DNA of 64,000 nt from assembly GCA_021813945.1 (NCBI GenBank), contig JAKAJD010000001.1, positions 73,744 through 137,743 of the forward strand, in the 5' to 3' direction. Both the position numbers and the translations under genes were made by a program. The notes under the pieces are model-generated. The model did no database searches. It was not told the DNA's origin and worked only from the letters and a program-made list of their open reading frames with translations. The DNA is from a bacterium. Lineage in GTDB: Bacteria > Patescibacteriota > Microgenomatia > Curtissbacterales > GWA2-41-24. Shown piece after piece: positions 18,109 through 37,722 of this stretch; positions within the stretch are counted from its first letter, which is position 1; the number at the start of each line of letters is the position of its first letter.

Positions 18109-19044
18109 ATGGCTGTTTATAAAAAGGTTCAGTACCCCGTAAAAATAATTTTTTTAGGTAGTAGACCCGCAAGTGTTAAAGCTCTTGAAATAATAGAGAG
18201 AAAGATTAAGGATCACAAGAAAAACTGGGTTGATGTGACAGTCGTAACTAGTTCAGATGAGCACCCGCCCGAAAGCGTCGTCAAATGGTGGAATGTAGGA
18301 AACCTTGGAAAAGTCGCAAGTAAAATTGGTTTTAAAACACTGGATTCAATATCAGATTTACCGGCTGATCATTTTGATCTTGGTATAAGCTTTTTTTTTA
18401 CAGATATAATCCCAGAAAGAATGATTAATAATAGTTCACGAGGCATCGTTAATATTCATTTTGGTTACCTGCCAACAAATGGTTACTCCAAAAGTAAAGG
18501 GTCACCCCATAAAAAAGGCGAGCCTTATAGCAGGGGAACATATCGCGGAAGCAATGTGCTAAGTCATGCAATAATCAATAATGAAAAATGGCAAGCAGTG
18601 ACACTTCACTTTATAAGCAAAATAATAGATTTGGGGCCTGTTATAGAGCAAGTGTGGAATCCAATCACGAGCAAAACAACTGCATGGGATTTACAGAAGT
18701 TAAGTGAGGACAAAGCTATAAGTCTTTTAGATAAATACTTTTCTCAATTGGTAGACAATCCAGAGAAAATTAAGACCCTTAAACCCGAGCTGTCAAAATA
18801 TCCGTACTATAATAGATCATTATTGCAGGATGCAAAAATATTGCCTCATAACATTTCAAAAGAAAAATTGAACTTATTTGCTAGAGCAATGTCGTTCCCA
18901 AACACAGAACCACCATATTTTTTGGACAAGAACAGTAAAGGTGAGATAAAAAAAAGCTACGTGATATATAAAAAAAACGAGGGAGTAATTATAATGGAGC
19001 CAACACAAAAAAAATTCATCCAAAAAATTGAAGACATAACATGA
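18109..19044 (+). CDS. sugar/THF N-formyltransferase (Fmt/ArnA-N-like) with catalytic-loop insertion and C-terminal extension
   Basis: N-terminus KIIFLGS. The formyl-transferase catalytic segment is split: NIHFGYLP [22-aa insert TNGYSKSKGSPHKKGEPYSRGT] YRGSNVLSHAIINNE. Then GVTLHF...IDLGPVIEQ (catalytic Asp). About 110 extra aa at the C-terminus. Confidence 0.65.
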   Translation: MAVYKKVQYPVKIIFLGSRPASVKALEIIERKIKDHKKNWVDVTVVTSSDEHPPESVVKWWNVGNLGKVASKIGFKTLDSISDLPADHFDLGISFFFTDIIPERMINNSSRGIVNIHFGYLPTNGYSKSKGSPHKKGEPYSRGTYRGSNVLSHAIINNEKWQAVTLHFISKIIDLGPVIEQVWNPITSKTTAWDLQKLSEDKAISLLDKYFSQLVDNPEKIKTLKPELSKYPYYNRSLLQDAKILPHNISKEKLNLFARAMSFPNTEPPYFLDKNSKGEIKKSYVIYKKNEGVIIMEPTQKKFIQKIEDIT

Positions 19045-19059
19045 AACTATATAAAATAT

Positions 19060-20322
19060 TTAGTTGTTAACATCCGAATTTGTTGAACGTTTTAATAAAT
19101 AAAATTGCGTTGCAGCCTGAAGAGACCTAACTATAACTTTACTAACTACAGCTCCCATCAGTCCAAAAAGTGGAATTAAAATGATAAGGCTGATAACAGT
19201 TATTGCTAGGTAAACAATGTTCATCGCATAAATAGATCGTGTATCCCGCCTCTTAATAAGCCCTAAGCTTAGCAAGTTTCCTGGATAGTAAAGAAGGCTA
19301 AGAGAAAAAATTTGTGAAATAAAAGTCGCAGACGTTGAGTAACCAGGAAAAAGAATTTTAAAAATCACTGGGGCCAGAACAATATACATGCCAACAATCG
19401 CCAAAACTGGTATTTCAAGTTGGACAGATTTTTTCCACAGATCTCCAAAAAGGTTTTTTTCGCTTATTGATGCAATTTTTGGTTGCCCCAAACCTAAAAG
19501 AACTTTAAAAAAAGTATGAATTTGCATAGGTATTAAAATCGCAAAAGCGTAAATTGCATTATTGGTAAATCCTAAAAGTAGAGGTACTAAGAACCTATCC
19601 AAATAATCAGCGGAAATTGTAAAAAATTGTGAAAGACTTAAATGCATGCCTAAACTTGCCATATCTTCGTCCATAATGTTGTTTTCAATGTCCTTATAAG
19701 CAATATAAGCTAATATCATTCCGGCAATTGCTGTTGACCAGGCAGAAAAAAGAGCAACGAGAATTATGCTCGGGAATTTCCACAAGGCAAAAGCAGTTGC
19801 CAAAAGGGAAGAATATTGAAATATGATGGAAAAAATGGCGACCTTTTTAAAATTCTTCTTGCCTGTTAAAAAAGATATGGAAAGACTAGTCGCGCTAGAA
19901 ATAGGAAATGCAAGAGCGCTTACGAATGTCGCTAAACCCAAGCTAGGATTTTGCCTAAAAGAAAAATAAACTGATCCAAAAACCAGCAAAAGAAATCCTA
20001 TCATTGACCATCTAAAAACAGATCGAACGGCGAATTTATAAGTGCCGTCTTTGCCTTCTGCAACCGATTGCGTTAATGCTTGCCCCATGCCTGGGAGCGC
20101 AGTTAAGCTCATGAATCCCAAAGCAGACATTAAAAAAGAAAATTGACCGTAAATATCCTTGGGCCAAATTCTTGCAAATAAAGCGGAAAGAAAGATGCCA
20201 CCGACAAACGAAATTAATGTCGAAAATGCTAACCAAAAACCTCCATGCAAAAAGTAAGGAAGGTCAAGGCCAAATAGATTGGAATACTTATCAACTTGCG
20301 ATTTTAAGAAACTTTTTTCCAT
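19060..20322 (-). CDS. Wzx-like oligosaccharide flippase / polysaccharide biosynthesis protein (MOP superfamily)
   Basis: 420 aa with about 12 predicted TM helices spread over the whole length. No large soluble domain. Confidence 0.55.
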   Translation of the reverse strand: MEKSFLKSQVDKYSNLFGLDLPYFLHGGFWLAFSTLISFVGGIFLSALFARIWPKDIYGQFSFLMSALGFMSLTALPGMGQALTQSVAEGKDGTYKFAVRSVFRWSMIGFLLLVFGSVYFSFRQNPSLGLATFVSALAFPISSATSLSISFLTGKKNFKKVAIFSIIFQYSSLLATAFALWKFPSIILVALFSAWSTAIAGMILAYIAYKDIENNIMDEDMASLGMHLSLSQFFTISADYLDRFLVPLLLGFTNNAIYAFAILIPMQIHTFFKVLLGLGQPKIASISEKNLFGDLWKKSVQLEIPVLAIVGMYIVLAPVIFKILFPGYSTSATFISQIFSLSLLYYPGNLLSLGLIKRRDTRSIYAMNIVYLAITVISLIILIPLFGLMGAVVSKVIVRSLQAATQFYLLKRSTNSDVNN

Positions 20323-21881
20323 ATTGTAATTTTCCCGCCGTCGGGTAATTTTATTTCATTGGGCATTTCTTTCCATGTATTAGAATCTATGTTGTTCAAT
20401 AATGTTTCATTGAAAACATTCAAATCTTTCGGACCTGTAACGCCTCCCGTTTTCATAATCATGTAGTCACCTTTATCAAAAGCGGCTTGAATTTCAAAAT
20501 AATTGGTATTTTTTGGAAAATAAGAAACCGTATGAATCTCAAGAGGCAATTTTGCCAAGAGCGCATAGTATTGTAAGGTATTTATATTATAAGCTTCATT
20601 CTCCGACGCTGAAATAACTATTTTACGTACACCATTCTTATTATCGTTCGAGATATATGTCAGTGTTTCTGAAACTGGCCATTTTTGAGAATTCGATGCC
20701 TTGACGTAGTTTCCAATTTGCTTATCAGCAAGTATTAAGGGTCCAATTGCCAATTCTTTATTAATTAGCTTGGCGGCAAACACCGCAGTATTTAAAAAGA
20801 CAAGAACAGGAAATATCATCGTAAGAACCAATATCACCAATAATCGCTTTGGGAAAAGAATTGTAATCAATCTAGAAATAAAGATTGCAACGACTGGAAG
20901 TAGAGGCAGCATTAAACGGTAGTCTTTATTTGGACCCAAGTAAAAAATAATAAAAGGGATTAAGAACCATCCAAGCAAAGTAGAATTTAGTTTGAGTCTT
21001 TTCCTTTGAAAATAAAACAGAATAATAAGAGTGAGAGATATTACAAACCAATACGCAGACATTCCATAATTTATAAAATCTAAAGCAGAACGGTATAAGT
21101 TACTAGCAGAAAAAGAGGACCCATAGTATAGACTTCCAAGAAGTGAAGTGTCTGTAGATCTTTTAGCTTTCCAAAGAACAGTCAAGATGTTTCTGGCATA
21201 CCAGGGTAGTGTAATTACCAAGGCAGGCACGGAAAAAATTAAAAGGTTTTTTAGATTAAAAATCGCCTTCTTGTTTTTTCTCCATACTTCGTAAATCAGT
21301 ATAGTTGCCGGCCCAGTGATAAAGAGAAAAAAATGAAACTTCATCATCATCCCTAATCCGGAGGTAATTCCCACAAAAAATAAATATTTTTTATTTTTAA
21401 GCTGTTCTGTTTTAAAAGCAAAAAAGATCCAGGCTACTACAAAAGCAGTCAAACCAAATTCAACTAAAAAATAACGAGATAGCCCATAAAAAAGGGGCAT
21501 CGTAGAAATTACAAGGCAAGAAATAAAGGCAGTTCCTTCGTCGAATAGTAAAGAGACGAGCTTAATGAAAAAGACGAAAAACATTAAGGCAAAAACTATA
21601 TTCAGGGTCACTGCAACATGATAACTTGAGCCAAAAATTAAGTATAAGGGAATAGGCAAAATCGTAATAAGCGGAGCTTTCGTTCCTAAAATCGTGGTTG
21701 TTTTCGCCAAAAAACTAAAAATTCCTTGCTCATTTAATGTTTGAAACAACATTTGAGCGCCAGTTAGGTAGTGTGCCTCATCCCAGAAAGGGGGAAGATT
21801 ATTTTTAAAAATCCAAAAGGCAGTAATTGATGTAAAAAGTAAAATCCATAAATAAAAAACAAAACGCCAACGGGAACTCAT
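20304..21881 (-). CDS. GT-C membrane glycosyltransferase, ArnT/PMT_2-like (GT39/GT83-type)
   Basis: N-terminal TM helix followed by PPFWDEAHYLTGAQ (DE motif of the first loop). More than 10 TM helices, then a soluble C-terminal ~150 aa domain. Confidence 0.6.
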   Translation of the reverse strand: MSSRWRFVFYLWILLFTSITAFWIFKNNLPPFWDEAHYLTGAQMLFQTLNEQGIFSFLAKTTTILGTKAPLITILPIPLYLIFGSSYHVAVTLNIVFALMFFVFFIKLVSLLFDEGTAFISCLVISTMPLFYGLSRYFLVEFGLTAFVVAWIFFAFKTEQLKNKKYLFFVGITSGLGMMMKFHFFLFITGPATILIYEVWRKNKKAIFNLKNLLIFSVPALVITLPWYARNILTVLWKAKRSTDTSLLGSLYYGSSFSASNLYRSALDFINYGMSAYWFVISLTLIILFYFQRKRLKLNSTLLGWFLIPFIIFYLGPNKDYRLMLPLLPVVAIFISRLITILFPKRLLVILVLTMIFPVLVFLNTAVFAAKLINKELAIGPLILADKQIGNYVKASNSQKWPVSETLTYISNDNKNGVRKIVISASENEAYNINTLQYYALLAKLPLEIHTVSYFPKNTNYFEIQAAFDKGDYMIMKTGGVTGPKDLNVFNETLLNNIDSNTWKEMPNEIKLPDGGKITIWKKVS

Positions 21882-22573
21882 CGAATCCGCTTATTTGCAA
21901 TCACAACCTCCCGTACGAGGTAATAAATAAATTTAAATCCAGTTGGTATCGCATATGAGGTACTTTGCCCCCCAATTCTATTACCCTCAATAGTTGGTAT
22001 TTCTGCGATTTTAGCGCGAGCCTTAAGGGCTCTGATTGTCATCTGAAACTCTATTGCGAAACCGGATGCATCCAAATTTAATCTTTTAAATAAACTTCTT
22101 TTTATCGCCCTGTAGCCATTTATTGTATCGCTTACTTGCCCTCCCCAAATTAAGCGTACCGCAAGAGAAAATACTATATTGGCCCATGCCCTAAACTTCA
22201 AGACTTTATCATCTTCTTCATTACGAGAATTTTTTTTGAATCTTGAGGCGATAGCCAAATCATTTCCTGCTTTTAACAAATTAATAAGTTTTGGTATGTC
22301 TGCAGGATTTTCATTACCATCTGGACTAAAAAAAACTAAATACTCTCCGTGAGATTTTGCAATAGCAATTTTAAAGGCCTCACCTCGGCCTTGTTTTTTT
22401 TGCTTTACGACTGGAATTTGGTTTTTTTTAAAAAACTCAACGGTTCCATCTGTAGATTTGAAATCCACCGCAAAAAACTCATCGACTGCTTCGAATGGAA
22501 TCTTACGGATAAGTGCCTTGACACCATCGATTTCATTTCTTGTCAAAATTACTAAAGTTGATTTTTGTACCAT
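21878..22573 (-). CDS. GT2 glycosyltransferase, short DPM1-like polyprenyl-phosphate sugar synthase
   Basis: LVILTRNE ... KSTDGT ... SPDGNENP motifs. 231 aa. 4-nt overlap with the downstream GT-C. Confidence 0.7.
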   Translation of the reverse strand: MVQKSTLVILTRNEIDGVKALIRKIPFEAVDEFFAVDFKSTDGTVEFFKKNQIPVVKQKKQGRGEAFKIAIAKSHGEYLVFFSPDGNENPADIPKLINLLKAGNDLAIASRFKKNSRNEEDDKVLKFRAWANIVFSLAVRLIWGGQVSDTINGYRAIKRSLFKRLNLDASGFAIEFQMTIRALKARAKIAEIPTIEGNRIGGQSTSYAIPTGFKFIYYLVREVVIANKRIR

Positions 22574-23517
22574 GAAATTGTCCTTTCCAAACCATCTTCC
22601 AGTTGTATTTGCGCTTTAAAACCGGTTTTTTCAAATGCTTTTTTAGTATCACAATTGCGCCTTGGTTGACCATCAGGTTTAGTAGTATCAAATTTAATCG
22701 TTGCTCTTTTACCAGATATTTTAACTATCATTTTTGCGAGATCCCCAATAGTGATTTCCTCATCTGCCCCGATGTTAACTGGATCTGCAATAGGATATTT
22801 TTCCGTTGTGACAAGAAGACCTTTCGCAAAATCTTCGGCATATAAAAAAGATCTAGTTTGTTTGCCGCTACCCCAAACAATTAACGGGTTTTCACCATCA
22901 AAAACACGTTTTATCATTCCAGGGATAACATGAGATATTTTGGGATCGAAATTGTCCCTTGGACCATATGCATTATAAGGTCTGGCTATTGCAACTTTCA
23001 TACCAAATTCCATTTGATAAAATTTACCAAAGAGCTCGGCCACTCTTTTTGCCCACCCATAGCCCAAATTTGTGGGTTCTGGATCATTCAAAAAACCCTC
23101 ATTTTCAGGCGTGGGTATTGTGCAGTTACGAGGATAAACACATGCAGAGCTTGTAATGAGAAATCTCTCCACCTTATTTCTACGGCCAGCTTCGATCATA
23201 TTTTTCGCAATTGCCACGTTATCACTAAACATCGTCGCTGGGTGATTAAGATTAAACTGAATTCCAGCAACTTTAGATGCCAAGTTAAGAATTACTTCTT
23301 GATTTTTAGATACCTTCATCGCAGCTCCGAAATCAGCAAGATCACATTTGATGACGGAAACCTTATCTTTTAAGTGGTCGATATTTTTTGTATGCCCCGA
23401 ACTCGTACTAACCGTTACCTTTGCATTCGCCTGAACTAAAATTTCCACAACAAAAGAACCTATAAATCCAGCGCCACCTGTTACAAGGACTCTTTTATTT
23501 CTCCAAAAGTTTTGCAT
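22552..23517 (-). CDS. extended SDR, GDP-L-fucose synthase (Fcl/GMER/ColC)-like 3,5-epimerase/4-reductase
   Basis: VLVTGGAGFIGSFVV. YGWAKR (YxxxK). C-terminal KPDGQPRRNCDTKKAFEKTGF resembles the Fcl PDGTPRKLLD signature. Confidence 0.6.
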   Translation of the reverse strand: MQNFWRNKRVLVTGGAGFIGSFVVEILVQANAKVTVSTSSGHTKNIDHLKDKVSVIKCDLADFGAAMKVSKNQEVILNLASKVAGIQFNLNHPATMFSDNVAIAKNMIEAGRRNKVERFLITSSACVYPRNCTIPTPENEGFLNDPEPTNLGYGWAKRVAELFGKFYQMEFGMKVAIARPYNAYGPRDNFDPKISHVIPGMIKRVFDGENPLIVWGSGKQTRSFLYAEDFAKGLLVTTEKYPIADPVNIGADEEITIGDLAKMIVKISGKRATIKFDTTKPDGQPRRNCDTKKAFEKTGFKAQIQLEDGLERTISWYKNQL

Positions 23518-24700
23518 TTTTCAAAAAAATACCAAATAGATCTTGTACATATTTTATATCATCTTGTACTAGGTACGGATGACTACCAATAATAAATCCT
23601 CGATCTTCCAACATTTTTGCAACGGGAAACTTTAAGCTTATATCTCCAAAAACCTTTTTATAAATAGGTTGAGATAAAAGCGGCATGAATAGTCGTGTCT
23701 CTACACCGTGTTCTTCCAAAAATAAAAGAAACTCCTCTTTTTCGATTCGTTTATCTAAAATCACTATTGGATAAAGCATGTAGCAATGCTCTGCATTTTT
23801 TCTGATCTGTGGCAATTGGAAAAAATGCGAATATCGGCTCAAGGCATTTGTTAATGATTTACCAACTTTTTGCCTTTTTTTAATAATAGAATTTTTGTTC
23901 TCCAGCTCAGCCAGACCCAGGGCACCTTCCATCTCAGTTAATCGGAAGCTGTAGCCTATATGCTCAAATTGAAATCTTCTTTCAATAAGAGAGTTTAAGC
24001 GGATCCGGTTATTTGTGTCATCATCTTCAATCTTAAGATAAATATTGTCTCTGCCATGAAACATAAGACTCTTCATCATCACTGCCAATTGTTCATCATT
24101 TGTGGTGACTATTCCCCCCACGCCGGTCACGATAATGTGAGCAACATAAGTGGAAAAAACCGCTATGTCTCCAAAGGATCCAACTGGCTGATCTAGATAA
24201 TTTACAAACATGGCTTCACAGGAATCTTCTATCACTTTCAAATTGTATTTTCTTGCGATTTTCATAATTTTTTGCATCTCTGCGCTTTGGCCAAATAGAT
24301 GAACAGGCATGATAGCTTTAGTTTTTGGTGAAATCTTCTCTTCGATTTTTAATGGATCAATACAATAATATTTCTCTTCAACATCGACAAAGACAGGTTT
24401 CAAATTATTGTGGAGAACTGCATTTGAAGACGCAATGAAGGTCAAAGCCGGGACAATTACTTCATCCCCGTCTTCCCACGAATAAGCTTCCTTCAGTGCA
24501 TGGATTGCAACCTGTAGCGCGCTAGTTCCGCTGTTTGTAACAATTGCATATTTACGGTTATGAAGTCTTGCAAACTCTTTCTCAAATTTTTCGGTAAATG
24601 AGCCGTAAGACAACCTATTATCGTTTAAGGTTTGGAGTACGTATTTTTTTGCTTTTTGGGATATTTTCAAATCGGCGATCGCAATATGCCTTTTTGTCAT
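23495..24700 (-). CDS. DegT/DnrJ/EryC1-family PLP/PMP enzyme with His replacing the Schiff-base Lys; predicted ColD/E1-type nucleotide-sugar 3-dehydratase
   Basis: DegT-fold motifs are present (NSGTSALQVAIHAL, GDEVIVPALTF, TKAIMPVHLFG, VIEDSCEA). The active-site segment reads FSTYVAHIIVTGVGG. The paralogs at 27934 and 34602 have FSFYPTKNLGAFGDGG and FSFHGTKNAASGEGG, so Lys is replaced by His here. Confidence 0.65.
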   Translation of the reverse strand: MTKRHIAIADLKISQKAKKYVLQTLNDNRLSYGSFTEKFEKEFARLHNRKYAIVTNSGTSALQVAIHALKEAYSWEDGDEVIVPALTFIASSNAVLHNNLKPVFVDVEEKYYCIDPLKIEEKISPKTKAIMPVHLFGQSAEMQKIMKIARKYNLKVIEDSCEAMFVNYLDQPVGSFGDIAVFSTYVAHIIVTGVGGIVTTNDEQLAVMMKSLMFHGRDNIYLKIEDDDTNNRIRLNSLIERRFQFEHIGYSFRLTEMEGALGLAELENKNSIIKKRQKVGKSLTNALSRYSHFFQLPQIRKNAEHCYMLYPIVILDKRIEKEEFLLFLEEHGVETRLFMPLLSQPIYKKVFGDISLKFPVAKMLEDRGFIIGSHPYLVQDDIKYVQDLFGIFLKNAKLLEK

Positions 24701-24769: not shown

Positions 24770-24779
24770 TTACACATTC

Positions 24780-25517: not shown

Positions 25518-25523
25518 AGGGTC

Positions 25524-26099
25524 GTGATAAAAATAAGTGCATTAGAAAAAAAACAAATTGCCGAAGTTGCTAAAATTCACAAAAAAGTGTTATCCGACGG
25601 ATTCGTATCGACATTGTCAGAAAACTTTTTAAATAAGTTTTATCTCGCTTTAACAGAGTCTCCCGATATTTTTACCCTTGTTGCAACACGAAACAAAAAA
25701 ATTCTAGGGTTCGTAAGTTGCACGACAAACGTTAAAAAACTGCCATTTTTCCTTATCAGAAATTTATGGAAAGATATAATCCTAGAAATGCTAAAAAATC
25801 CTTCAGTAATTCTTAAATTTATAGAGTCCATCTTCTATCCAAGTTTTAATGATTCTGCAGTTTCCTGTGAGGCTCTATCAATCGCAGTAATAAATACTGA
25901 AAGAGGCCAGGGAATCGGGAAGAACTTAATTTTAAATGCCAAATCAGAATTTAAAAGAAGAAAATTTGCCGAGTTTCAGCTATCGGTTAGAAGCACCATG
26001 CTAAATGCAAATAATTTCTACCAAAAAATTGGATTATCGAAAATTAAAACTGCAAAATTCTTAGGTGAAGAAATTAATTTTTGGAAAGGTAAGTGTTAA
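25524..26099 (+). CDS. GNAT family N-acetyltransferase
   Basis: Acetyl-CoA-binding motif RGQGIGKNLI. 191 aa. GTG start. Confidence 0.6.
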   Translation: MIKISALEKKQIAEVAKIHKKVLSDGFVSTLSENFLNKFYLALTESPDIFTLVATRNKKILGFVSCTTNVKKLPFFLIRNLWKDIILEMLKNPSVILKFIESIFYPSFNDSAVSCEALSIAVINTERGQGIGKNLILNAKSEFKRRKFAEFQLSVRSTMLNANNFYQKIGLSKIKTAKFLGEEINFWKGKC

Positions 26100-29031: not shown

Positions 29032-29032
29032 A

Positions 29033-31675: not shown

Positions 31676-33011
31676 GGATTAATTTTTTGCTACCACTAGC
31701 GGCTATTGCCAAAAGCAATATTTGTGATGCAGTGAAATAGTAATTAGAGTTTCCAATTGGTCCTAAAAAAATTGTGGTTATAAACACAAGACCAATTATT
31801 GTTAACATTTTAGCCAAATTTACTGTCGAAGGAATCAGTAGCCAAAAAACTATAACTGAAATTACAGCTAACAAAGGAAAAACAAACTGGGGTGGGTAAT
31901 AATGAAATTGCCGATCAATAAATGTTGAAAACGTAAGCGAAAATCTCTGGATTTGCGCAAAAGACGCTCCGCCAATGTTGATAGTTACGATGCTTTTATA
32001 AAAAGCTTTCCAGTCGAGTAGGGCAAAAGGCAAATGGAGTGCAAAAAAAGCAAGAATTCCTGCCAACACAATTTTTTTATTGGCAAAATTCTCATTCTTT
32101 AAAAGAAAAAGCAGCGGCAAAGCGTAAAATATCTTAACAGATACTGTTAGGGCTAAGAAAATACCGGACAAAACATATCTGCGGTTTAGAAAAAAAAGAA
32201 TACCCAAAAAAAACAATGAAGTTATTAATACATCGGTAGCAGAAAAAGTTAAAAAAGAAAATTGCCTGGGATTAAAAAGGTAAATTAGCGAAATTATTTG
32301 AGAAATCTCTTGGTCCGACCAAAATCTCATTGAAATTTTATAGAGGGAAATTGCAGCTAGAAAATTGGCAACAATGAGTAGATAGCGTGGCTCGTGAAAT
32401 ATTAAGTCAAATGGCAAAAATAATAAAATTGTTGCTGGTCCGTAAGCAAAATGGCTATATCCAAAATTTTTTACCTCGAACTGAGAATTAGTAGCTGCCG
32501 TTTCATAAGGATTTTGAAGGGACACAAGTCGTAAAGGTCCATATCTTAACACTTGGTAAACGTCAATGTTTGGAACTTTAACTATCCTGATTAGACTAAG
32601 TTGAATAATAAACGAGATCAATAATATCAACAAAAATTTATTTTTCAGAATTTTATATAAGATCGTTTTGTCAGATTTTTTTATGAAATAAAGAAGAATT
32701 AAAATAGGCGCAAGAAACATCGCAAATCGATTAACCCACATTGCCAAACTTAAAAATCCGTTTACATCTTCGACATTTAAAGTGAAGGCAAAAATCGAAA
32801 ACATAAACAAAATGATTATTAAAATAGACTTAAAATCTGCAGTTAATGTTATCCCTATGCTTTTTTTCATAAAGACAATAACTAAAAGCAAAAAGACTGT
32901 AGCAAGCAACAGATAAAAACCGCTTGTTGAAAACCATAGGTTAACACTGTAAATGAATGTTGAGAAGAGAAAAGCTGCAATAAGAAATGTCAGATTAAGT
33001 CTACTTGTCAT
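31668..33011 (-). CDS. polytopic membrane protein, DUF2029/GT87-like putative GT-C
   Basis: 447 aa, about 12 TM helices. LQNPYETAA...FAYGPATILLFLPF segment is similar to the YPP-motif proteins at 14592 and 45159. Confidence 0.4.
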   Translation of the reverse strand: MTSRLNLTFLIAAFLFSTFIYSVNLWFSTSGFYLLLATVFLLLVIVFMKKSIGITLTADFKSILIIILFMFSIFAFTLNVEDVNGFLSLAMWVNRFAMFLAPILILLYFIKKSDKTILYKILKNKFLLILLISFIIQLSLIRIVKVPNIDVYQVLRYGPLRLVSLQNPYETAATNSQFEVKNFGYSHFAYGPATILLFLPFDLIFHEPRYLLIVANFLAAISLYKISMRFWSDQEISQIISLIYLFNPRQFSFLTFSATDVLITSLFFLGILFFLNRRYVLSGIFLALTVSVKIFYALPLLFLLKNENFANKKIVLAGILAFFALHLPFALLDWKAFYKSIVTINIGGASFAQIQRFSLTFSTFIDRQFHYYPPQFVFPLLAVISVIVFWLLIPSTVNLAKMLTIIGLVFITTIFLGPIGNSNYYFTASQILLLAIAASGSKKLIHV

Positions 33012-33649
33012 CTCTTTTGAGCTTTGATTAAAACTTCCATACCTAGATTTGTGTATTTAATACTTAAGATTCTAAAACCTGAAGCCTTAATTTTTTTGGT
33101 TAAATCTTTAGGCTTTAAACAATTTATGTGGCTATGGTTCCATACAGAACCTTTCCATTTTGTCCAGAACCACCAAACTGTTCTAAAAAGCATGCTATCT
33201 GTATCTTGAATAACAATTAAATTACCCTTTCTTTTTAAGACCCTGTTTATCTCTGAAAGAGCTTGATCTGGGTCGTGCAAATGCTCTAGAGTTTCTACTG
33301 CTAGTACTATATCGAAAGAACTTTTCCTAAATGGCAACTTATGAGCATCTCCATGCAGGAAGGTGATATTCTGTTTAGTTTTTATTGCATATTTTATGGC
33401 GTTTGCGTATTTATCGATGCCGGTTATAGCAATTTTCGGGAATAGTTTTTTGATTGCTGCAGCCGTTGTGCCATCAGCGCAACCAATATCAAGAAGCTTA
33501 GTGTGACGATTCTCCAGCAGTTTTGCTAGATTGCTCCATTTATGTTGATGCCAATATTTTTGAAATAAATTGCTTTTCGTCCCACTTTCATAATAATCAG
33601 GTGGAACCTGTTTTAATATTTCTTCAAATTGTGCTGAATCCGGGCTCAT
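33008..33649 (-). CDS. class I SAM-dependent methyltransferase
   Basis: Motif I LLDIGCADGTT. FDIVLAVETLEHL. Confidence 0.7.
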   Translation of the reverse strand: MSPDSAQFEEILKQVPPDYYESGTKSNLFQKYWHQHKWSNLAKLLENRHTKLLDIGCADGTTAAAIKKLFPKIAITGIDKYANAIKYAIKTKQNITFLHGDAHKLPFRKSSFDIVLAVETLEHLHDPDQALSEINRVLKRKGNLIVIQDTDSMLFRTVWWFWTKWKGSVWNHSHINCLKPKDLTKKIKASGFRILSIKYTNLGMEVLIKAQKR

Positions 33650-34605
33650 AAAACCTTTTTAAAATAATTTATCGTCTCCAAGAGGCCTGTCTCAAGGTTA
33701 ACTTTAGGTTGCCAGCCCAAAAGTACCCTTGCTTTTTGAATGTCAGGCTTTCTTTGCTTAGGATCGTCTTGGGGAAGATCGTTATAAGAAATTTCGCTTT
33801 CAGAATTAGTCAGTCTTTTGATTGTTTTTGCAAACTCCAGAATCGTTTTTTCGTCAGGGTTACCAATATTTATTACCTCTCCCTTGGCGCTCTCTGTTTC
33901 CATTGCATTTATTAAGCCTTCGACCTGATCTGAAACGTAGCAAAATGATCGAGTCTGGCTTCCTGAACCATATATGGTCAAAGGCTTGTTTTCCAGAGCT
34001 TCTTTTATAAAATTCACGACAGCCCTGCCCTCATTCACATTCATTCTTGGTCCATAAGTATTAAAAATTCTAACAATTCTTCCATCCATCGCTTTTTCTC
34101 TGACAAACGCGGCCACAATAGTTTCTCCAAATCTCTTAGATTCATCGTAAACTGAGCGTGGTCCGGTTGTAGAAACATTACCCCTGTAATTTTCATCCTG
34201 CGGAGATTTTTCCGGATCGCCATAAATTTCTGAAGTTGAGGCAAATAAAAGCCTTGCACCAGTTTTAAGCGCTAAATCGCACATATTCCAAGTCCCTATA
34301 CTATTTACTTTCATTGTCTCAAACGGATGTGCAATATACGAAACTCTAGAATGCGCATTTGGGTCTGCGGGGGATGCCAAATGGTAGATTTCATCAATTT
34401 TACTAAATTTCCGATTTAAAAAAGGCTGACTGACATCAAAGTTAATAAAATTAAAATTTTTCTTTGAGAGTAAATGAGCAACATTTTTTTCTGTTCCTGA
34501 GATTAAATTATCCAAACAGATTACTGTGTCACCGCGCTCGGTTGCAAAGTCACACAAATGGCTGCCTATAAATCCAGCTCCCCCGGAAATCAGTATTGTT
34601 TTCAT
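33646..34605 (-). CDS. UDP-glucuronate decarboxylase (UXS / ArnA C-terminal domain-like)
   Basis: Matches the UXS family along the whole length: ILISGGAGFIGSHL, DNLISG, YHLASPA, STSEIYGDP, YDESKR, RIFNTYGPRMNVNEGRAVVNFI, GSGSQTRSF, DDPKQRKPDI. Confidence 0.85.
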   Translation of the reverse strand: MKTILISGGAGFIGSHLCDFATERGDTVICLDNLISGTEKNVAHLLSKKNFNFINFDVSQPFLNRKFSKIDEIYHLASPADPNAHSRVSYIAHPFETMKVNSIGTWNMCDLALKTGARLLFASTSEIYGDPEKSPQDENYRGNVSTTGPRSVYDESKRFGETIVAAFVREKAMDGRIVRIFNTYGPRMNVNEGRAVVNFIKEALENKPLTIYGSGSQTRSFCYVSDQVEGLINAMETESAKGEVINIGNPDEKTILEFAKTIKRLTNSESEISYNDLPQDDPKQRKPDIQKARVLLGWQPKVNLETGLLETINYFKKVL

Positions 34606-35735
34606 AATATTTTTCCTAAAACTGCTGCGATGAAATCCATTTCAGATCGCTTTAACCTTGGATGCATTGGTAAACGGATTAAAGTAGAAGCAACCTCTTC
34701 AGTCACAGGTAGCCAGCCGGCTTTATACCCTAACTTTTTTCCCATTACAGACATATGTAGAGGCAAATAATGAAAAGAAGCTTCGACACCATACATTCTT
34801 AATTCAGAAATAACCTTGTCGCGAGAAATTCGAGGAACTCTTATAGCAAAAATATGCCAGTTGGGAGAAGTTCCGTTTGAAACTTGCGGCAAGACTAATT
34901 TTGATGATAGCTTGTTTAATTTTTTGAGTAAATACTCTGCATTCTTTTTTCTAAGATCTGTTATTTTTTCGAGTTTTTTAACTTGTTCTAGCGCAATCGC
35001 GGAAAGAATATCGGAAAGTATTAAACTACGGCCAACATTTACCCAAGAATATTTTCTTCTTTCACCTCTCATAAAAGATGAACGATTCGTACCTTTTTCT
35101 CTGATTATTTCTGCGATTTTAAAAATACTTTTGTCATTAGTTACAAAAGCTCCACCCTCACCGCTAGCAGCGTTCTTAGTTCCATGGAAGGAAAAACAGC
35201 CAATATTCCCCAAAGTACCTAAATTTTTTCCCATAAATTTTGCTCCAAGAGCATGTGCGGCATCTTCAATCACAATTAGATTATTTTTTTGGGCAATTTT
35301 GTCTATACTTTCCATATCACAAGCCATTCCGGCATAATGAACCACCATAATAGCCTTTGTTTTTTTTGTAATTTTCTTTTCTATTTCCAAAGGGTCAATG
35401 TTATAGGTGTTGATATCAATGTCAGCAAAAACCGGCTTCGCACCCGCTAGGATTACTGCGTTTGCACAGGATGAAAAAGTAAAACTTGGCATTATCACTT
35501 CTGCACCTTTTTTAATTGCACATGCACTTGCAAGCTCCAATGCGGCTGTTCCAGAACCGGTCGGTAAGACATATTTTATCCCCAAATCTTTCTCCAGTAA
35601 TTTTGCTAGCTTCTCACTGTAGGATAGATCACCTACCCCCGTACCAGATCTGATAGCATCAATTGCAGCCTTTTCTTCTTCTCGCCCCCAGAAAGTTTTA
35701 TGCAAAGGAATAGTAAATGAATTATTTTTTGACAT
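34602..35735 (-). CDS. DegT-family PLP-dependent aminotransferase, ArnB-like (UDP-4-keto-pentose aminotransferase type)
   Basis: PTGSGTAALELASACAI, KAIMVVHYAG, VIEDAAHALGA, and FSFHGTKNAASGEGG, which is close to the ArnB segment SFHAIKNITCAEGG. Confidence 0.8.
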   Translation of the reverse strand: MSKNNSFTIPLHKTFWGREEEKAAIDAIRSGTGVGDLSYSEKLAKLLEKDLGIKYVLPTGSGTAALELASACAIKKGAEVIMPSFTFSSCANAVILAGAKPVFADIDINTYNIDPLEIEKKITKKTKAIMVVHYAGMACDMESIDKIAQKNNLIVIEDAAHALGAKFMGKNLGTLGNIGCFSFHGTKNAASGEGGAFVTNDKSIFKIAEIIREKGTNRSSFMRGERRKYSWVNVGRSLILSDILSAIALEQVKKLEKITDLRKKNAEYLLKKLNKLSSKLVLPQVSNGTSPNWHIFAIRVPRISRDKVISELRMYGVEASFHYLPLHMSVMGKKLGYKAGWLPVTEEVASTLIRLPMHPRLKRSEMDFIAAVLGKIL

Positions 35736-36441
35736 TGGCTATTTGTTTTTTAAATTCTAATATGCTCCTAATATATCTAATCGTATCCGGCATAATCTTA
35801 ACGGTCGATTTCTTTTCATGCCTCCGAACAAACAAAACTGGAATCTGTGTAATTTTAAGACCCGCTAAATTTGCCCTCGCACAAATTTCAGTGTCCCAAA
35901 ACCAGTGCTTGTCCTTAACTTTTTTGAGAACTGGTAAAATAGTTTTTTTCCTGAAAAACTTATAGCCAGCTTCCGTATCGTCAACTGGAATGTTTAAAAG
36001 CACCTTGATGAGAGCCGCATAAGTATGTGATGCAACAACCCGTGTTAAAGATTTAAAACCTCTCTCGTAATACCTTTTTCCAACCACCATATCGCAGCCA
36101 TTCTCCACCTCTTTGATAAAAAGCGGAATATAACTTGGAGATACCTCACAATCGACGTCTATAAAACCACAAATTGAACCCCGTGACACTTGAATACCGT
36201 CAGTTACTGATTTCCCTCGTCCAAGATTTTTTTTATGAAAAATTACTCGAGAATTTGGAATTTTTTTTAAATTTCTCGCTAACACTTCTCTTGTCTTATC
36301 AGTACTCTTATCTTCTACAAATACAATTTCCCAGTTGCCAGAAAATTGCCTAACTTCGAAAAGAATTTTATTTAAGCTCTCTTCGAAAGTAGAGCCTTCA
36401 TTGTAACAAGCAAGTATTAGTGAATAATCAATTTTTTGCAT
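35722..36441 (-). CDS. GT2 glycosyltransferase, short DPM1/ArnC-like polyprenyl-phosphate sugar synthase
   Basis: LILACYNEG ... VEDKSTDKT ... DVDCE motifs. 239 aa. Confidence 0.75.
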   Translation of the reverse strand: MQKIDYSLILACYNEGSTFEESLNKILFEVRQFSGNWEIVFVEDKSTDKTREVLARNLKKIPNSRVIFHKKNLGRGKSVTDGIQVSRGSICGFIDVDCEVSPSYIPLFIKEVENGCDMVVGKRYYERGFKSLTRVVASHTYAALIKVLLNIPVDDTEAGYKFFRKKTILPVLKKVKDKHWFWDTEICARANLAGLKITQIPVLFVRRHEKKSTVKIMPDTIRYIRSILEFKKQIANVKK

Positions 36442-36450
36442 CGGCTCATT

Positions 36451-37722
36451 TTAAGGCAAATTGTTACAGTTCTCAAATACTGAAAAACAAGTTTTGTAAT
36501 TTTTATCCTTAAACCAAAAACCAATTGCATCACCTTGTCCTAGAGCAATATATGCATCGTAAGAACTCGAAACAGAGTTGTCTGCAAATATAAGGGTAGA
36601 TCCAGACGGCAAATTAGATCTATCTATTTGAGAAATATAATAATATGCCAGATTTGCCCGTTGTGTTACCCAATTATCCTGTTCTATAAGCTGAACACTA
36701 AAAAAAGCAATAAATATAAAAGCCAGTATCATCACAACTGCATATCTTAATTTAACCTTGCTCAAAGTCATTCCGATAAACGAGCCAACTGAAAATATTG
36801 GAATATTAATGTAGTTTGCAGCGAGGTGGGTGGGGATCAATACGAATGGGAACAAGCCTACAATAAATACTGCAAAGAAAAATTTTAGAAGCGTCAAATC
36901 CGTATACTTCTTGAGATTATTTAAGAAAAAAATTGCAATCGCAAAGACCCAAAACAGTAAAATTACTGTAACAAGCTGATCTTTTGAAACTCCAGGGAAG
37001 CCGAATGATCTTAAAATATAATATTTCAAAGCTCCCAAAACAGCAGGTGAGACCATTATTTTATATGAGTCAAAAGTACTTTTTGGGGTAAGGAATATTT
37101 TTGCAATTAGAAAGAAAAAAGAAATTAAAAATAATCCGATATTAGTTTTTAAAATCTTACCCTCTCTTCTTAAAAAATCGAAGACAAGTATAATCACCAA
37201 ACCAACAATCATTGCCTCAGAAGCTAAAATGGAAAGCGTAAAGAAGCACAAAGTCAATCTCTCTTGTTTTTTAAGATGGTAGAAAAAAGAAATAATAAAG
37301 AAGCAAAAGCCAATCGCTGTTGCTCCTCCTGAAATCCAGTAGTAAGTATTAAACTGCGAAGGGTTTACCGCGTAAATTAAAGCCGCAATAAAGGCCCCTA
37401 TCTTAGAAAACCCAAGCGCTTTTAAAGTTTTAAAAATAAAGAAACTGGCGGTCATCTGAATAACAAGCGTTAAGAAGTGATACCAAAAATAGTCCTTCCC
37501 AAAAAGATCCCCGCTTATAAGAAAGTAAAGATTATGAAAGGGCCTCCAGTGTGTAACTTGCGGCGGACCGAAAGCTCTCAGAATATCAAGTATTAGGCCG
37601 TGGCCAGAAAATTGCGAAATTAAAATAAAATCATCCTGAGCAAAAAAAGTGAAAAATCCTGCCCCGAAAACAAAAATAGCGCCTAAAAAAAGAGCTATTA
37701 AAACTAGAGTGTTTATTTTCAC
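36451..37722 (-). CDS. polytopic membrane protein, putative GT-C
   Basis: 423 aa. FFAQDDFILIS acidic pair right after the first helix. About 11 TM helices. The GTG start at 37722 overlaps the divergent ORF, so the start is uncertain. Confidence 0.45.
   Translation of the reverse strand: MKINTLVLIALFLGAIFVFGAGFFTFFAQDDFILISQFSGHGLILDILRAFGPPQVTHWRPFHNLYFLISGDLFGKDYFWYHFLTLVIQMTASFFIFKTLKALGFSKIGAFIAALIYAVNPSQFNTYYWISGGATAIGFCFFIISFFYHLKKQERLTLCFFTLSILASEAMIVGLVIILVFDFLRREGKILKTNIGLFLISFFFLIAKIFLTPKSTFDSYKIMVSPAVLGALKYYILRSFGFPGVSKDQLVTVILLFWVFAIAIFFLNNLKKYTDLTLLKFFFAVFIVGLFPFVLIPTHLAANYINIPIFSVGSFIGMTLSKVKLRYAVVMILAFIFIAFFSVQLIEQDNWVTQRANLAYYYISQIDRSNLPSGSTLIFADNSVSSSYDAYIALGQGDAIGFWFKDKNYKTCFSVFENCNNLP

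Follow-up and report, generated by a model that had tools for sequence, protein, structure and literature searches.

A glycan island of a Curtissbacteria-like bacterium that appears to encode several three-component glycosylation cassettes

Three-component glycosylation systems, in which a lipid carrier serves as intermediary, have been described previously (PMC11127046; PMC8035078). Several members of the UDP-xylose synthase (UXS) family are documented to release an NDP-4-keto-xylose, namely CalS9, AtmS9, EvdS6, RsU4kpxs, and ArnA (PMC10338323). The window analyzed here is a 64-kb stretch of DNA from a Microgenomates (Curtissbacteria-like) CPR bacterium, for which three Arn-like aminosugar modules had been predicted. 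The nearest relatives of one of its aminotransferases (C_DegT, from cassette C below) reside in Curtissbacteria, Daviesbacteria, and Patescibacteria MAGs (71–85% identity). The host is tiny and uncultured, and has no outer membrane.

We place a probability of roughly 0.6 on the reading that the block carries several mutually independent cassettes for three-component extracytoplasmic glycosylation, with the mechanism and the assignments to cassettes A, B, and C proposed here. Judging from protein families and folds, cytoplasmic tailoring enzymes would produce an unusual nucleotide sugar. A small GT2 of the same class as ArnC, DPM1, and GtrB, peripheral to the membrane, would move this sugar onto polyprenyl phosphate. 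The lipid-linked monosaccharide would then be flipped, and a GT-C enzyme would act outside the membrane to join the sugar to an acceptor at the cell surface.

Window ORFs of 120 aa or longer were screened with Pfam and NCBIfam models, and all genes of the original prediction were recovered at the coordinates given, each with the family named for it. These are not chance ORFs, because dozens of related contigs carry orthologues. The entire window is one glycan island, which makes the block part of an island of at least 64 kb. Only seven intergenic gaps in the window exceed 60 nt, and the genes of cassettes B and C form a single gapless 11-gene operon running from 37722 to 26096. The window encodes six small GT2s, rather than the three originally counted, and at least ten GT-C-like proteins.

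Every cassette pairs a small GT2 that lacks transmembrane (TM) segments with a GT-C membrane transferase, which is the known three-component lipid-carrier design. The best scores of all six small GT2s are to polyprenyl-phosphate glycosyltransferase models (AglJ, PpgS, ArnC, PgfS, and Dol-P hexose transferase), and the PMT_2, GT87, and DUF2142 matches exceed their Pfam cut-offs. One difference counts against the model: ArnC and GtrB possess a TM hairpin, whereas the small GT2s here do not. Cassette A includes a gene for a Wzx-like protein; for cassettes B and C no flippase is evident, which likewise counts against the model.

Cassette C lies on the minus strand and begins with a polytopic 423-aa protein (36451..37722, GTG start) that matches no Pfam or NCBIfam model. 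Its AF2 model (pLDDT 92) retrieves PglB, STT3, ALG12, ArnT (5ezm, TMq 0.59), Pmt4, and AftB with Foldseek. On this structural prediction we report the protein as a new GT-C-fold enzyme outside any Pfam family. About 200 homologues are found, all in Curtissbacteria-like MAGs, and they share an invariant Q29-D30-D31-F32 (QDDF) motif. In most relatives its gene stands before those for the GT2 and the DegT enzyme. The adjacent small GT2 (35722..36441; Pfam Glycos_transf_2) is a predicted polyprenyl-phosphate glycosyltransferase with no predicted TM segment. Its AF2 model (pLDDT 90) retrieves nothing but ArnC, Pyrococcus DPMS, and GtrB among the top 20 PDB fold matches (TMq up to 0.82). The predicted structure thus bears out its description as ArnC-like and, with the GT-C nature of the membrane proteins, the proposed logic of lipid-carrier loading followed by GT-C transfer. 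A second membrane protein of the cassette, at 31668..33011, is a GT87-like GT-C glycosyltransferase (PF09594, 33.2 against a cut-off of 25) with 13 predicted TM-like segments.

The tailoring genes of cassette C, likewise on the minus strand, include a DegT-family enzyme at 34602..35735 that carries FSFHGTKNAASGEGG and retains the Schiff-base lysine for PLP. Although it had been called ArnB-like, it is a WecE-type sugar 4-aminotransferase: it passes the WecE model NF008687 (397 bits against a cut-off of 375) and fails the ArnB model (208 versus 631), and its best PDB match is WecE (4piw, 259 bits, versus 152 for ArnB). The start of the next gene (33646..34605), encoding a UXS-type UDP-glucuronate decarboxylase, overlaps the aminotransferase stop by 4 nt. 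This enzyme had been described as UXS/ArnA-C-like, of which the UXS half holds and the ArnA half does not (348 bits, E 4e-103, to human UXS1 versus about 95 to ArnA). It retains T-S-E, YxxxK, N, and R, and carries two lineage-specific insertions. A class I SAM methyltransferase follows (33008..33649; Methyltransf_11, 83.7 bits, with generic PDB matches) and may methylate the sugar at N or O; it comes after the UXS gene in about half of the cassette-carrying related loci. The last member is a UDP-GlcA 4-epimerase-like SDR (30722..31675; PDB 5u4q, 226 bits; BcUGAepi 6zl6, 206 bits; MoeE5, 164 bits) with an SSS/YGASK motif. It had been placed in module B, but synteny puts it with cassette C, since it comes after the UXS or methyltransferase gene in 13 loci, including loci without the rest of B.

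Comparison with relatives reveals a fixed string: the novel GT-C, the GT2, the WecE-type 4-aminotransferase, UXS, the methyltransferase (in about half of the loci), and the 4-epimerase-like SDR. The conserved order of GT-C, GT2, DegT, and UXS is reported here for the first time. The aminotransferase and GT2 genes adjoin in all of about 30 related loci, and in one protein (P0333) a C_DegT-like domain is naturally fused to a GT2 (42% identity over 238 aa), a fusion that is also new. Relatives keep the UXS gene and the 4-aminotransferase gene as a fixed pair with translational coupling. Of the 12 informative loci, those whose UXS orthologue shares 68% identity or more, all 12 have C_DegT directly upstream of UXS, and UXS lies within 6 kb in 10 of 13 C_DegT loci. 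Against the model, no UXS is nearby in the other three (L007–L009), and the best 150 representatives include no DegT-UXS fusion.

A divergent plus-strand operon (37649..42032) also belongs to cassette C, which therefore comprises 30722-37722 plus 37649-42032; its synteny with the cassette is kept in more than 15 loci. By Pfam it encodes a DUF2142 membrane protein, a hexapeptide acetyltransferase, a methyltransferase, and a PMT_2-like 531-aa membrane protein that matches PMT2_50464 (E 6e-5). The acetyltransferase scores best with WcaF (87) and WbbJ (67), followed by NeuD/VioB (61), and in one locus (L019) the order is GT2, hexapeptide acetyltransferase, DegT. Regarding candidates for N-acylation in cassette C, this conserved enzyme most resembles O-acetyltransferases, and the GNAT match is generic.

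An amino-pentose is a plausible product of cassette C on the basis of these sequences. The UXS-type enzyme would supply a UDP-4-keto-pentose from UDP-GlcA, which the aminotransferase would turn into a UDP-4-amino-4-deoxy-pentose, with WecE-type stereochemistry giving the L-arabino configuration. This sugar would be methylated and/or acylated and then loaded onto lipid. Such a route would work like both the Arn (polymyxin-resistance) pathway and the calicheamicin/AT2433 aminopentose route, with non-orthologous enzymes. The Arn reading of cassette C is valid by analogy only. ArnD, ArnE, and ArnF are indeed not recognizable, with no homologue among window ORFs of at least 120 aa. The outcomes that the original prediction had set against an Arn reading are largely those found: the decarboxylase groups with plain UXS enzymes, and the DegT enzyme passes the WecE model and fails that for ArnB. 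In addition, the formyltransferase is unlinked to cassette C.

Two rival explanations bear on this product. The decarboxylase looks like a complete UDP-xylose synthase, given that it matches human UXS1 far better than ArnA and retains all residues linked to the reductive half-reaction (T, N, and R; PMC10338323); the UXS family also holds the documented releasers of the 4-keto sugar, and the gene is coupled to that of a 4-aminotransferase. Equally consistent is a 6-deoxyhexose substrate for the aminotransferase, made by an RmlB encoded elsewhere, as the enzyme passes a curated dTDP-4-amino-4,6-dideoxygalactose transaminase model. No version of cassette C examined includes a 4,6-dehydratase. As a precedent for the amino-pentose route, a Cytophagales locus provides a positional analogue, in which a true WecE is accompanied by a 4,6-dehydratase-like SDR, an ArnC-like GT2, a WecD-like GNAT, a protein resembling ArnF, and a membrane protein.

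Cassette A (19060-24700, minus strand) proved not to be an aminosugar module. Its DegT protein (23495..24700; RfbH, 247 bits) resembles PMP-dependent sugar 3-dehydratases: His188 occupies the position of the Schiff-base lysine, aligns with K186 of GDP-perosamine synthase, and is kept in orthologues. Because the protein contains only three cysteines, an E1-type Fe-S site is unlikely. The adjoining Fcl/ColC-like epimerase-reductase (SDR; 22552..23517) has Fcl as its best model (GDP-L-fucose synthase 7ll6, 177 bits; NF047922, 210, under the cut-off of 500), with the GMER Cys (SSAC) and His (SHV) aligned. Histidine in place of the PLP lysine, together with this reductase, argues for a deoxysugar pathway, and the sequences suggest a colitose-type 3,6-dideoxyhexose, which the two enzymes would make. 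Delivery would fall to a TM-less GT2 (21878..22573; Glycos_transf_2, 58.8 bits; AglJ 107 and Dol-P hexose transferase 46, both under cut-off), a PMT_2 GT-C (20304..21881; PF13231, 41.5 against 26.1; 11 TM-like segments), and a candidate Wzx/MOP-type flippase (19060..20322; Polysacc_synt, 45.9 bits). This five-gene order recurs in three loci (L083, L084, and L094), where the Wzx-like gene keeps its position after the GT-C.

The divergent sugar N-formyltransferase-like protein (18109..19044, plus strand; Formyl_trans_N, a weak 30.6 bits) had been proposed to serve module C. Its gene stands 14.5 kb from cassette C and is linked to cassette A: in two other contigs examined its neighbors are a Glyco_trans_1_2 glycosyltransferase and cassette A, never cassette C, and in one of these contigs a DegT and a GFO oxidoreductase of its own accompany it. 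The protein conserves N115, H117, and D174, carries a 21-aa insertion, has homologues in only 10 clusters, and weakly matches WbkC and WlaRD in PDB. Its ArnA model score is 37 versus 777. A methionyl-tRNA formyltransferase is ruled out (Fmt model, 40 versus 201).

Between cassettes A and B, a conserved plus-strand spacer pair (24780..26099) encodes a 245-aa partial NDP-sugar-dehydrogenase-like protein (UDPG_MGDP_dh, 23.8, sub-threshold) and a GNAT acetyltransferase (34–36 bits). The pair is kept in L084, and the GNAT gene alone in L006, L010, and L099. Cassette B (26096-30788, minus strand) would combine a TM-less GT2 and a PMT_2 GT-C with two tailoring enzymes, an atypical SDR and a DegT that resembles 3-aminotransferases. 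The GT2 (30009..30788; Glycos_transf_2, 102.9 bits) scores 88 with ArnC and 86 with PgfS, both under cut-off. The extended SDR (29033..30016; Epimerase family, 145.8 bits) lacks the YxxxK dyad, with N-GVD-A for Y-xxx-K and GTRNQ for STSE, both kept in four orthologues. The DegT aminotransferase (27934..29070) retains its lysine and is nearest 3-aminotransferases (PDB 7b0d, 323 bits, then QdtB, WlaRG, DesV, and WbpE), and the GT-C (26096..27937; PF13231, 37.6 against 26.1) has 17 TM-like segments.

The modules had been viewed as paralogous, which holds at the superfamily level only. Identities between cassettes are 21–30% for GT2s, 29–34% for DegTs, and 25–32% for SDRs, and BLAST detects no similarity among the GT-Cs, so that the cassettes are neither recent duplicates nor products of in-locus duplication. 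What stands of three Arn-like aminosugar modules is that tailoring enzymes lie next to a GT-C and a GT2 of the polyprenyl-phosphate kind; cassette A appears to be of the deoxysugar type. Bacteria of the Microgenomates CPR lineage are known to have no lipid A, and it would not be the acceptor here. Candidate acceptors for the sugars of these cassettes are polysaccharides, glycolipids, and proteins of the S-layer or of pili.

The open reading frames claimed in the original prediction are all present where it placed them, and they belong to the families it named when compared with Pfam and NCBIfam models. The window has a coding density of 99% and a GC content of ~35%, and it is glycan-related throughout its length. 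Its products include 13 glycosyltransferases of the Glycos_transf_1 family (GT4 type), six small GT2 enzymes that lack TM segments, at least ten polytopic GT-C-like proteins, two Wzx-like proteins, one Wzy_C protein, and several methyltransferases and acetyltransferases. Two large polytopic proteins, encoded at 5835-7391 and 8484-10250, have no family assignment. Only seven intergenic gaps exceed 60 nt. Scans of the window for tRNAs and Rfam families returned neither, and the counts of promoter-like and terminator-like sequences in the window equal the shuffled expectation.

No gaps separate the minus-strand genes between 37722 and 26096, which abut or overlap one another. Thus, the segments termed cassette B (26096-30788) and cassette C (30722-37722) form a single string of 11 genes that resembles a transcription unit. 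A second minus-strand string, from 24700 down to 19060, comprises cassette A and a Wzx-like gene. Between these two strings lie two plus-strand genes (24780-26099), which code for a 245-aa protein (24780-25517) and a GNAT protein (25524-26099). The 245-aa protein matches UDP-Glc/GDP-Man dehydrogenases below threshold and only over their N-terminal and central regions, lacks their C-terminal domain, and does not resemble a frameshifted pseudogene. The pair is kept in L084 (handles of this form denote related loci from other genomes or metagenomes), and homologs of the 245-aa protein also occur in L092 and L094.

Each cassette encodes a GT-C protein alongside a GT2, and the PMT_2, GT87, and DUF2142 matches of these proteins lie above the Pfam cut-offs. 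A small GT2 gene is found beside a PMT_2, YfhO, GT87, or novel GT-C gene six times in the window. Lipid-phosphate sugars are the donors used by the PMT_2, GT87, and YfhO families. Further sets that fall outside the present finding are an SDR with a GT2 (91-1700), a GT2 with a 469-aa membrane protein and YfhO (44441-48484), a GT2 with PMT_2 (49628-51897), and two PMT_2 genes (14592-16046 and 58089-59528).

We read the block as several probable lipid-carrier glycosylation cassettes of the three-component type, a known and widespread design (PMC11127046, PMC8035078). Established examples are GtrA/GtrB/GtrC, CsbB/GtcA/YfhO, GacI/J/L, lactococcal Csd, and the C. youngae pentofuranose system (PMC11127046; reviewed in PMC8035078). 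In those systems a flippase links a polyprenyl-phosphate GT2 to a GT-C, and surface glycans or proteins are decorated on the outer side of the membrane. The cassettes resemble them in the predicted polyprenyl-phosphate GT2, in the GT-C, and in the presence of several systems in parallel within one monoderm cell. In cassette A, as in the orthologous cassettes, a Wzx-like gene comes directly after the GT-C gene, and this Wzx/MOP-type flippase candidate is reminiscent of the MATE-family flippase of the C. youngae system. No dedicated flippase was identified for cassettes B and C. Unlike in the established systems, the GT2s of the window have no C-terminal TM hairpin, no GtrA-type flippase is encoded in the window, one GT-C belongs to a family without a Pfam model, and the host is a CPR bacterium. 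In addition, DegT, SDR, and methyltransferase genes are built into the cassettes, and therefore the donors would be rare sugars rather than Glc, GlcNAc, or Gal.

Exact window proteins are also present on metagenomic contigs of up to ~0.98 Mb. The closest relatives of the cassette C aminotransferase (34602-35735), which share 71%–85% identity with it, come from MAGs of Candidatus Curtissbacteria, Daviesbacteria, and the ‘Patescibacteria group’, which places the source among the Microgenomates CPR bacteria. Six loci with ‘uncultured Gammaproteobacteria bacterium’ titles (L003, L004, L007, L008, L011, and L013) carry the Curtissbacteria-type cassette at 72%–85% identity. The labels on these third-party assemblies look wrong, and we take them to be errors, given that gene content and the remaining best matches point to Curtissbacteria or Patescibacteria. 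To our knowledge, this lineage has no LPS or lipid A synthesis, and the Microgenomates taxonomy together with this absence argues against lipid A as the acceptor. Searches of the literature on CPR envelope glycosylation, and on PDB entries 8VR2/3/5 and 7B0D/7B0M, yielded nothing usable.

Cassette C is the part of the block for which an Arn-like function had been proposed in greatest detail. Its decarboxylase (33646-34605) had been described as UXS/ArnA-C-like. The UXS half of this description holds (348 bits and E 4e-103 to human UXS1), whereas the ArnA half does not, given scores of ~95 bits to ArnA chains in the PDB and 112 bits to the ArnA model NF005998 (cut-off 777). The protein keeps T-S-E, YxxxK, the FNTYGPRM Asn, and the conserved Arg, and these residues, together with high similarity to a characterized enzyme, place it within the UXS family. 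Similarly, the neighboring DegT protein had been called ArnB-like, although it scores 208 bits against NF008658 (cut-off 631) and 152 bits against ArnB in the PDB versus 259 for WecE. This protein passes the curated WecE model NF008687 (397.3 bits, cut-off 375) and retains the PLP lysine, and it is thus predicted from equivalog score and active-site residue to be a WecE-type transaminase. At the level of family membership, a UXS-type decarboxylase and an aminotransferase outside the ArnB group are the two outcomes that the original prediction itself had listed as contrary to it.

The genes for UXS and the aminotransferase overlap by 4 nt. UXS lies within 6 kb of the aminotransferase gene in 10 of 13 informative loci of the genome collection, and a metagenome scan seeded with UXS placed the aminotransferase gene immediately upstream in all 12 informative loci with at least 68% UXS identity. 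We regard the functional coupling of these two enzymes as strong. The aminotransferase and GT2 genes are adjacent in every locus, and one genome carries a natural fusion of the two (P0333, 648 aa, L085:1405-3351), in which a WecE-like aminotransferase (39% identical to that of cassette C) is joined to a small GT2 of the cassette C type (42% identical). A 557-aa protein with no Pfam match is encoded directly after P0333. Among the best 150 representatives, DegT proteins are fused to GT2, GNAT, formyltransferase, sulfotransferase-like, and PglF-like domains, and no DegT-UXS Rosetta-stone fusion was found among them. None of the cassette versions encodes a 4,6-dehydratase.

Compared with human UXS1, the Microgenomates UXS proteins (33646-34605 and those of L003-L017 and L086-L106) have two conserved insertions, one of +4 and one of +5 after the HLASPA motif. 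These were considered as a marker of coupling to DegT and rejected as such. The +5 insertion is a lineage trait because it also occurs in a stand-alone UXS clade (59%–61% identity) with no cassette genes nearby.

The small GT2 of cassette C (35722-36441) had been called ArnC-like, and it resembles ArnC at the level of predicted fold. Its AlphaFold model (pLDDT 90) matches ArnC first, and the first 20 PDB fold matches, which include GtrB, are all polyprenyl-phosphate glycosyltransferases. The fold search gave E 6e-15 and TMq 0.75-0.78 for Salmonella ArnC, and TMq 0.82 for Pyrococcus DPMS. Judged by its modeled fold, this protein is probably a polyprenyl-phosphate GT2 of the GtrB/DPM1/ArnC class. 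The cut-off of the ArnC sequence model NF007986 is missed (53–88 bits, cut-off 529). The best models of the small GT2s of the window are AglJ, PpgS, ArnC, PgfS, and a Dol-P hexose transferase, and none of the six proteins reaches a curated cut-off. For the other five small GT2s, the best models are all polyprenyl-phosphate glycosyltransferases, each below its cut-off, and the same class is predicted for them. None of the six has a TM segment, whereas ArnC and GtrB have a TM hairpin.

The adjacent membrane protein (36451-37722) has no match in Pfam or NCBIfam searches. It has ~200 homologs, essentially all in Curtissbacteria-like bins, and within the family a Q-D-D-F motif that follows the first helix is invariant. 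The fold of its model (pLDDT 92) matches PglB, STT3, ALG12, ArnT, Pmt4, and AftB, and on this structural prediction we assign it as a GT-C enzyme of a family that has no Pfam model. Public gene calls shorten the protein to 334 aa by using an internal start codon. The 423-aa reading frame with a GTG start is supported by orthologs of ~424 aa and by the fold model. This longer frame overlaps the divergent DUF2142 frame (GTG at 37649) by 74 nt, and one of the two starts may lie further downstream.

Comparison of gene order among relatives redraws the limits of cassette C. In 13 loci, including some that have no other cassette B genes, an SDR gene originally assigned to cassette B (30722-31675) comes after the gene for UXS or that for the methyltransferase. 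Its product resembles UDP-GlcA 4-epimerases (PDB matches to BcUGAepi, 206 bits, and to MoeE5). The divergent plus-strand operon at 37649-42032 is likewise kept alongside cassette C in relatives, and it encodes a DUF2142 protein, a hexapeptide acetyltransferase, a methyltransferase, and a PMT_2-like protein of 531 aa. In a Daviesbacteria locus, the acetyltransferase gene sits between the GT2 and DegT genes. A role for the hexapeptide acetyltransferase as the N-acetylating partner is only partly supported: the synteny is strong, but the family matches are O-acetyltransferase-like (WcaF 87 bits, WbbJ 67, NeuD/VioB 61, with O-acetyltransferases as the best families). The methyltransferase within cassette C (33008-33649) has only generic class I matches in the PDB, with no tie to sugar N,N-dimethyltransferases.

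The formyltransferase gene (18109-19044) had been proposed to supply the other half of a split ArnA. Its product is a divergent member of the Formyl_trans_N family with weak similarity to sugar N-formyltransferases, and it keeps the catalytic Asn, His, and Asp. The view of it as a sugar enzyme stands insofar as it is not Fmt (40 bits, cut-off 201), and its score against the ArnA model is 37 bits (cut-off 777). The family is rare, comprising 10 clusters among 5.8 billion, and has a conserved insertion of ~21 residues between its HFGYLP and YRG motifs. Its proposed membership in the cassette C pathway is not upheld. The gene sits 14.5 kb from cassette C on the opposite strand, and it is absent from the cassette C loci examined, except that L019 has a 30% homolog ~5 kb away. 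Its neighbors are instead a Glyco_trans_1_2 glycosyltransferase and cassette A. L084 has the same arrangement as the window, in which the gene is divergent from that for the glycosyltransferase and near cassette A. In L083, the formyltransferase is part of a string that encodes a GFO/IDH/MocA oxidoreductase, a methyltransferase, the formyltransferase, a DegT of the Lys type, and a Glyco_trans_1_2 glycosyltransferase, with cassette A ~3.7 kb beyond, after a radical-SAM gene.

The three cassettes had also been described as paralogous modules, yet their homology is at the superfamily level only. Pairwise identities are 21%–30% for the GT2s, 29%–34% for the DegT proteins, and 25%–32% for the SDRs, and the GT-C proteins have no BLAST similarity among themselves. 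Every DegT is nearer to its own characterized enzyme than to the neighboring DegTs: GDP-perosamine synthase/E1 for A; 7b0d, QdtB, and WbpE for B; and WecE for C. In-locus duplication is ruled out by these low identities and separate nearest enzymes, and the common architecture reflects one design used repeatedly. Cassettes travel as units among related genomes. For example, in L094 the orthologs of cassette A directly follow cassette C, with identities of 77%–79% for DegT, SDR, and GT2 and 59% for GT-C.

In cassette B, the DegT protein (27934-29070) resembles 3-aminotransferases and keeps the PLP Lys. The SDR encoded next to it (29033-30016, minus strand) has N-GVD-A at the Y-xxx-K site and GTRNQYG in place of STSEVYG, and both changes are kept in L005, L006, L010, and L016. 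From these substitutions, the protein may be catalytically atypical or non-redox.

Cassette A does not fit the proposal of three aminosugar pathways. The position of the Schiff-base Lys (K186 of perosamine synthase) is occupied by His188 in its DegT protein (23495-24700). This His is kept in two orthologs, whereas the DegT proteins of B and C retain Lys. A His for Lys replacement on a DegT fold is characteristic of PMP-dependent 3-dehydratases of the ColD/E1 type. The protein, which has three Cys residues in total, scores 196 bits to perosamine synthase, 185 to E1, and 126 to ColD. The best PDB and NCBIfam matches of the adjacent SDR (22552-23517) are to Fcl (177 bits in the PDB, and 210 bits in NCBIfam against a cut-off of 500), with the GMER Cys and His aligned. 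Because a His-type DegT paired with an Fcl-like SDR corresponds to the ColD plus ColC logic of colitose biosynthesis, we infer that the product of cassette A is a 3,6-dideoxyhexose and not an aminosugar. The likeness is thus to the GDP-L-colitose pathway (Gmd, ColD, ColC), although the product of cassette A would use a lipid-phosphate carrier and a GT-C, a route not known for colitose. No Gmd is encoded in the window. The order DegT, SDR, GT2, PMT_2, and Wzx-like recurs as a five-gene set in L083, L084, and L094.

How closely, then, does cassette C resemble known systems? The Arn system (PmrHFIJKLM), which places L-Ara4N on lipid A, is alike in the proposed order of UDP-GlcA decarboxylation, C4 transamination, transfer by an ArnC-fold GT2, and a GT-C step. 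Unlike Arn, cassette C has a UXS-type decarboxylase, a WecE-type aminotransferase, and no linked formyltransferase. Its GT2 lacks TM helices, its GT-C is not an ArnT ortholog, and it resides in a lineage without lipid A. As had been noted, ArnD and ArnE/F are not recognizable, and none was found among window ORFs of at least 120 aa, although the same tool readily detected an ArnF-like protein in L033. The resemblance to Arn therefore holds only in outline, and no protein of the block belongs to the ArnA-C, ArnB, ArnA-N, ArnD, or ArnE/F families.

A second parallel is offered by the aminopentose branch of calicheamicin and AT2433 biosynthesis (CalS8/S9/S13/S10 and AtmS8/S9/S14/S10), in which a DegT aminotransferase and an N-methyltransferase act after NDP-4-keto-xylose. 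This intermediate is released by a UXS-family decarboxylase of the branch (PMC10338323). Several UXS-family enzymes (CalS9, AtmS9, EvdS6, and RsU4kpxs) release NDP-4-keto-xylose, and sequence does not tell 4-keto releasers from non-releasers in this family (PMC10338323). The enzyme string matches the UXS, DegT, and methyltransferase string of cassette C. Unlike cassette C, these actinomycete pathways feed a Leloir glycosyltransferase acting on a secondary metabolite, with no lipid carrier and no GT-C, and their enzymes are not close relatives (CalS13 scores 70 bits to the cassette C aminotransferase).

The third comparison is with the Fuc4NAc branch of enterobacterial common antigen (RmlB/WecE/WecD), of which WecE is the closest characterized relative of the cassette C aminotransferase. 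Unlike that branch, the cassette C operon has no WecD-like GNAT. An Arn-like cassette of a Cytophagales MAG (L033, 5304-11131) encodes a 4,6-dehydratase-like SDR, a GT2, a WecD-like GNAT, a small ArnF/E-like membrane protein, a 540-aa membrane protein, and a true WecE. The GT2 of L033 is ArnC/PgfS-like and has TM helices, and its WecE scores 590 bits against the WecE model versus 397 for the cassette C enzyme. UXS of the CPR cassette occupies the position of the L033 4,6-dehydratase. Comparable pairs of GT2 and WecE genes occur in many Bacteroidota loci (L023-L079). Cassettes of the L033 type suggest a lipid-phosphate-linked Fuc4NAc decoration in Bacteroidota.

We favor the reading that the product of cassette C is a lipid-linked 4-amino-4-deoxy-pentose. 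An L-arabino configuration would be expected from WecE-type stereochemistry on a 4-keto-pentose, a step that we infer. A bolder reading, to which we give a probability of roughly one in three (0.35), is that Microgenomates, which have no lipid A, built an independent Arn-like route from non-orthologous parts, in which UXS-type decarboxylation and WecE-type transamination are combined with a TM-less ArnC-fold GT2 and a GT-C family not recognized before. By this route, a cationic or N-modified 4-amino-4-deoxy-pentose would be placed on polyprenyl phosphate and then on a surface polymer or protein. A serious rival, although we consider it somewhat unlikely, is that cassette C makes a 4-amino-4,6-dideoxyhexose (Fuc4N/Fuc4NAc type, as in enterobacterial common antigen) from dTDP- or UDP-4-keto-6-deoxyglucose. 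The 4,6-dehydratase would then be encoded elsewhere, with the role of UXS and of the epimerase-like SDR limited to providing other glycosyltransferases of the same glycan with UDP-xylose, UDP-L-arabinose, or UDP-GalA. Such a product accords with a best PDB match to WecE and a score over the WecE equivalog cut-off (397 vs. 375), but the margin is small relative to the 590 of true WecE and is compatible with shifted specificity. In Bacteroidota cassettes, a true WecE does occur together with an ArnC-like GT2, a WecD-like GNAT, and a 4,6-dehydratase-like SDR; L007-L009 have the GT2 and DegT genes without UXS; and among the best 150 representatives WecD-WecE fusions are many whereas UXS fusions are absent. 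The cassette C UXS also has every residue of a complete xylose synthase. However, it is translationally coupled to DegT as a constant neighbor, and no 4,6-dehydratase, RmlA, or RmlB is encoded in the 64-kb island or in ~30 cassette versions.

It is improbable that cassette C and the formyltransferase at 18109-19044 together constitute a complete split-gene Arn pathway to polyprenyl-P-4-formamido-4-deoxy-L-arabinose, with three paralogous copies for three aminosugars, along the lines of the original prediction. The order of chemistry fits (decarboxylase, aminotransferase, ArnC-fold GT2, GT-C), and the formyltransferase, with its Asn, His, and Asp in place, is nearer to sugar N-formyltransferases than to Fmt. 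A Formyl_trans_N-GNAT fusion (442 aa) is also encoded 2.5 kb downstream of the DegT-GT2 fusion in L085. Against this stand the distance and opposite strand of the formyltransferase gene, its absence from every cassette C locus examined apart from the distant L019 homolog, its company of Glyco_trans_1_2 glycosyltransferase and cassette A in L083 and L084, and its own DegT and GFO oxidoreductase in L083. Moreover, the ArnA, ArnB, and ArnC equivalog cut-offs are all missed, the His-type dehydratase leaves cassette A with no aminosugar pathway, and identities of 21%–34% exclude recent duplication. Even less probable is a scheme in which the small GT2s act as conventional Leloir glycosyltransferases on a growing lipid-PP-linked repeat unit, the polytopic membrane proteins serve as its polymerases or ligases, and no polyprenyl-phosphate monosaccharide donors are made. 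The Glycos_transf_1-family, Wzx-like, and Wzy_C proteins of the island are typical of Wzx/Wzy assembly, and the small GT2s are TM-less and fall under every curated equivalog cut-off. Nevertheless, the cassette C GT2 fold matches polyprenyl-phosphate glycosyltransferases before all Leloir GT2s, and the six pairings of small GT2 genes with PMT_2, YfhO, GT87, or novel GT-C genes involve families established as users of lipid-phosphate sugar donors.

If the bolder reading of cassette C is true, it would represent the first Ara4N-type surface modification outside diderm LPS, and a coupled aminotransferase would be withdrawing the 4-keto intermediate from a plain-looking UXS. The UXS and aminotransferase pair could illustrate the diversion of a ‘complete’ xylose synthase toward an amino-pentose. 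What is new here is this possible non-orthologous amino-pentose route in an organism without lipid A, a GT-C family that has no Pfam model, and a natural DegT-GT2 fusion. The enzyme sets on offer include that GT-C family and a possible lipid-phosphate route for a 3,6-dideoxyhexose. Loci of this kind should not be annotated as ‘Arn’ or ‘polymyxin resistance’.

Biochemically, the CPR/Patescibacteria cell envelope is almost entirely uncharacterized, and it mediates episymbiotic attachment to hosts and exposure to phages. The island suggests that these reduced genomes invest heavily in many parallel lipid-carrier systems for rare-sugar decoration, and it provides a first concrete picture of the share of a ~1-Mb genome that is spent on decorating surface glycans.
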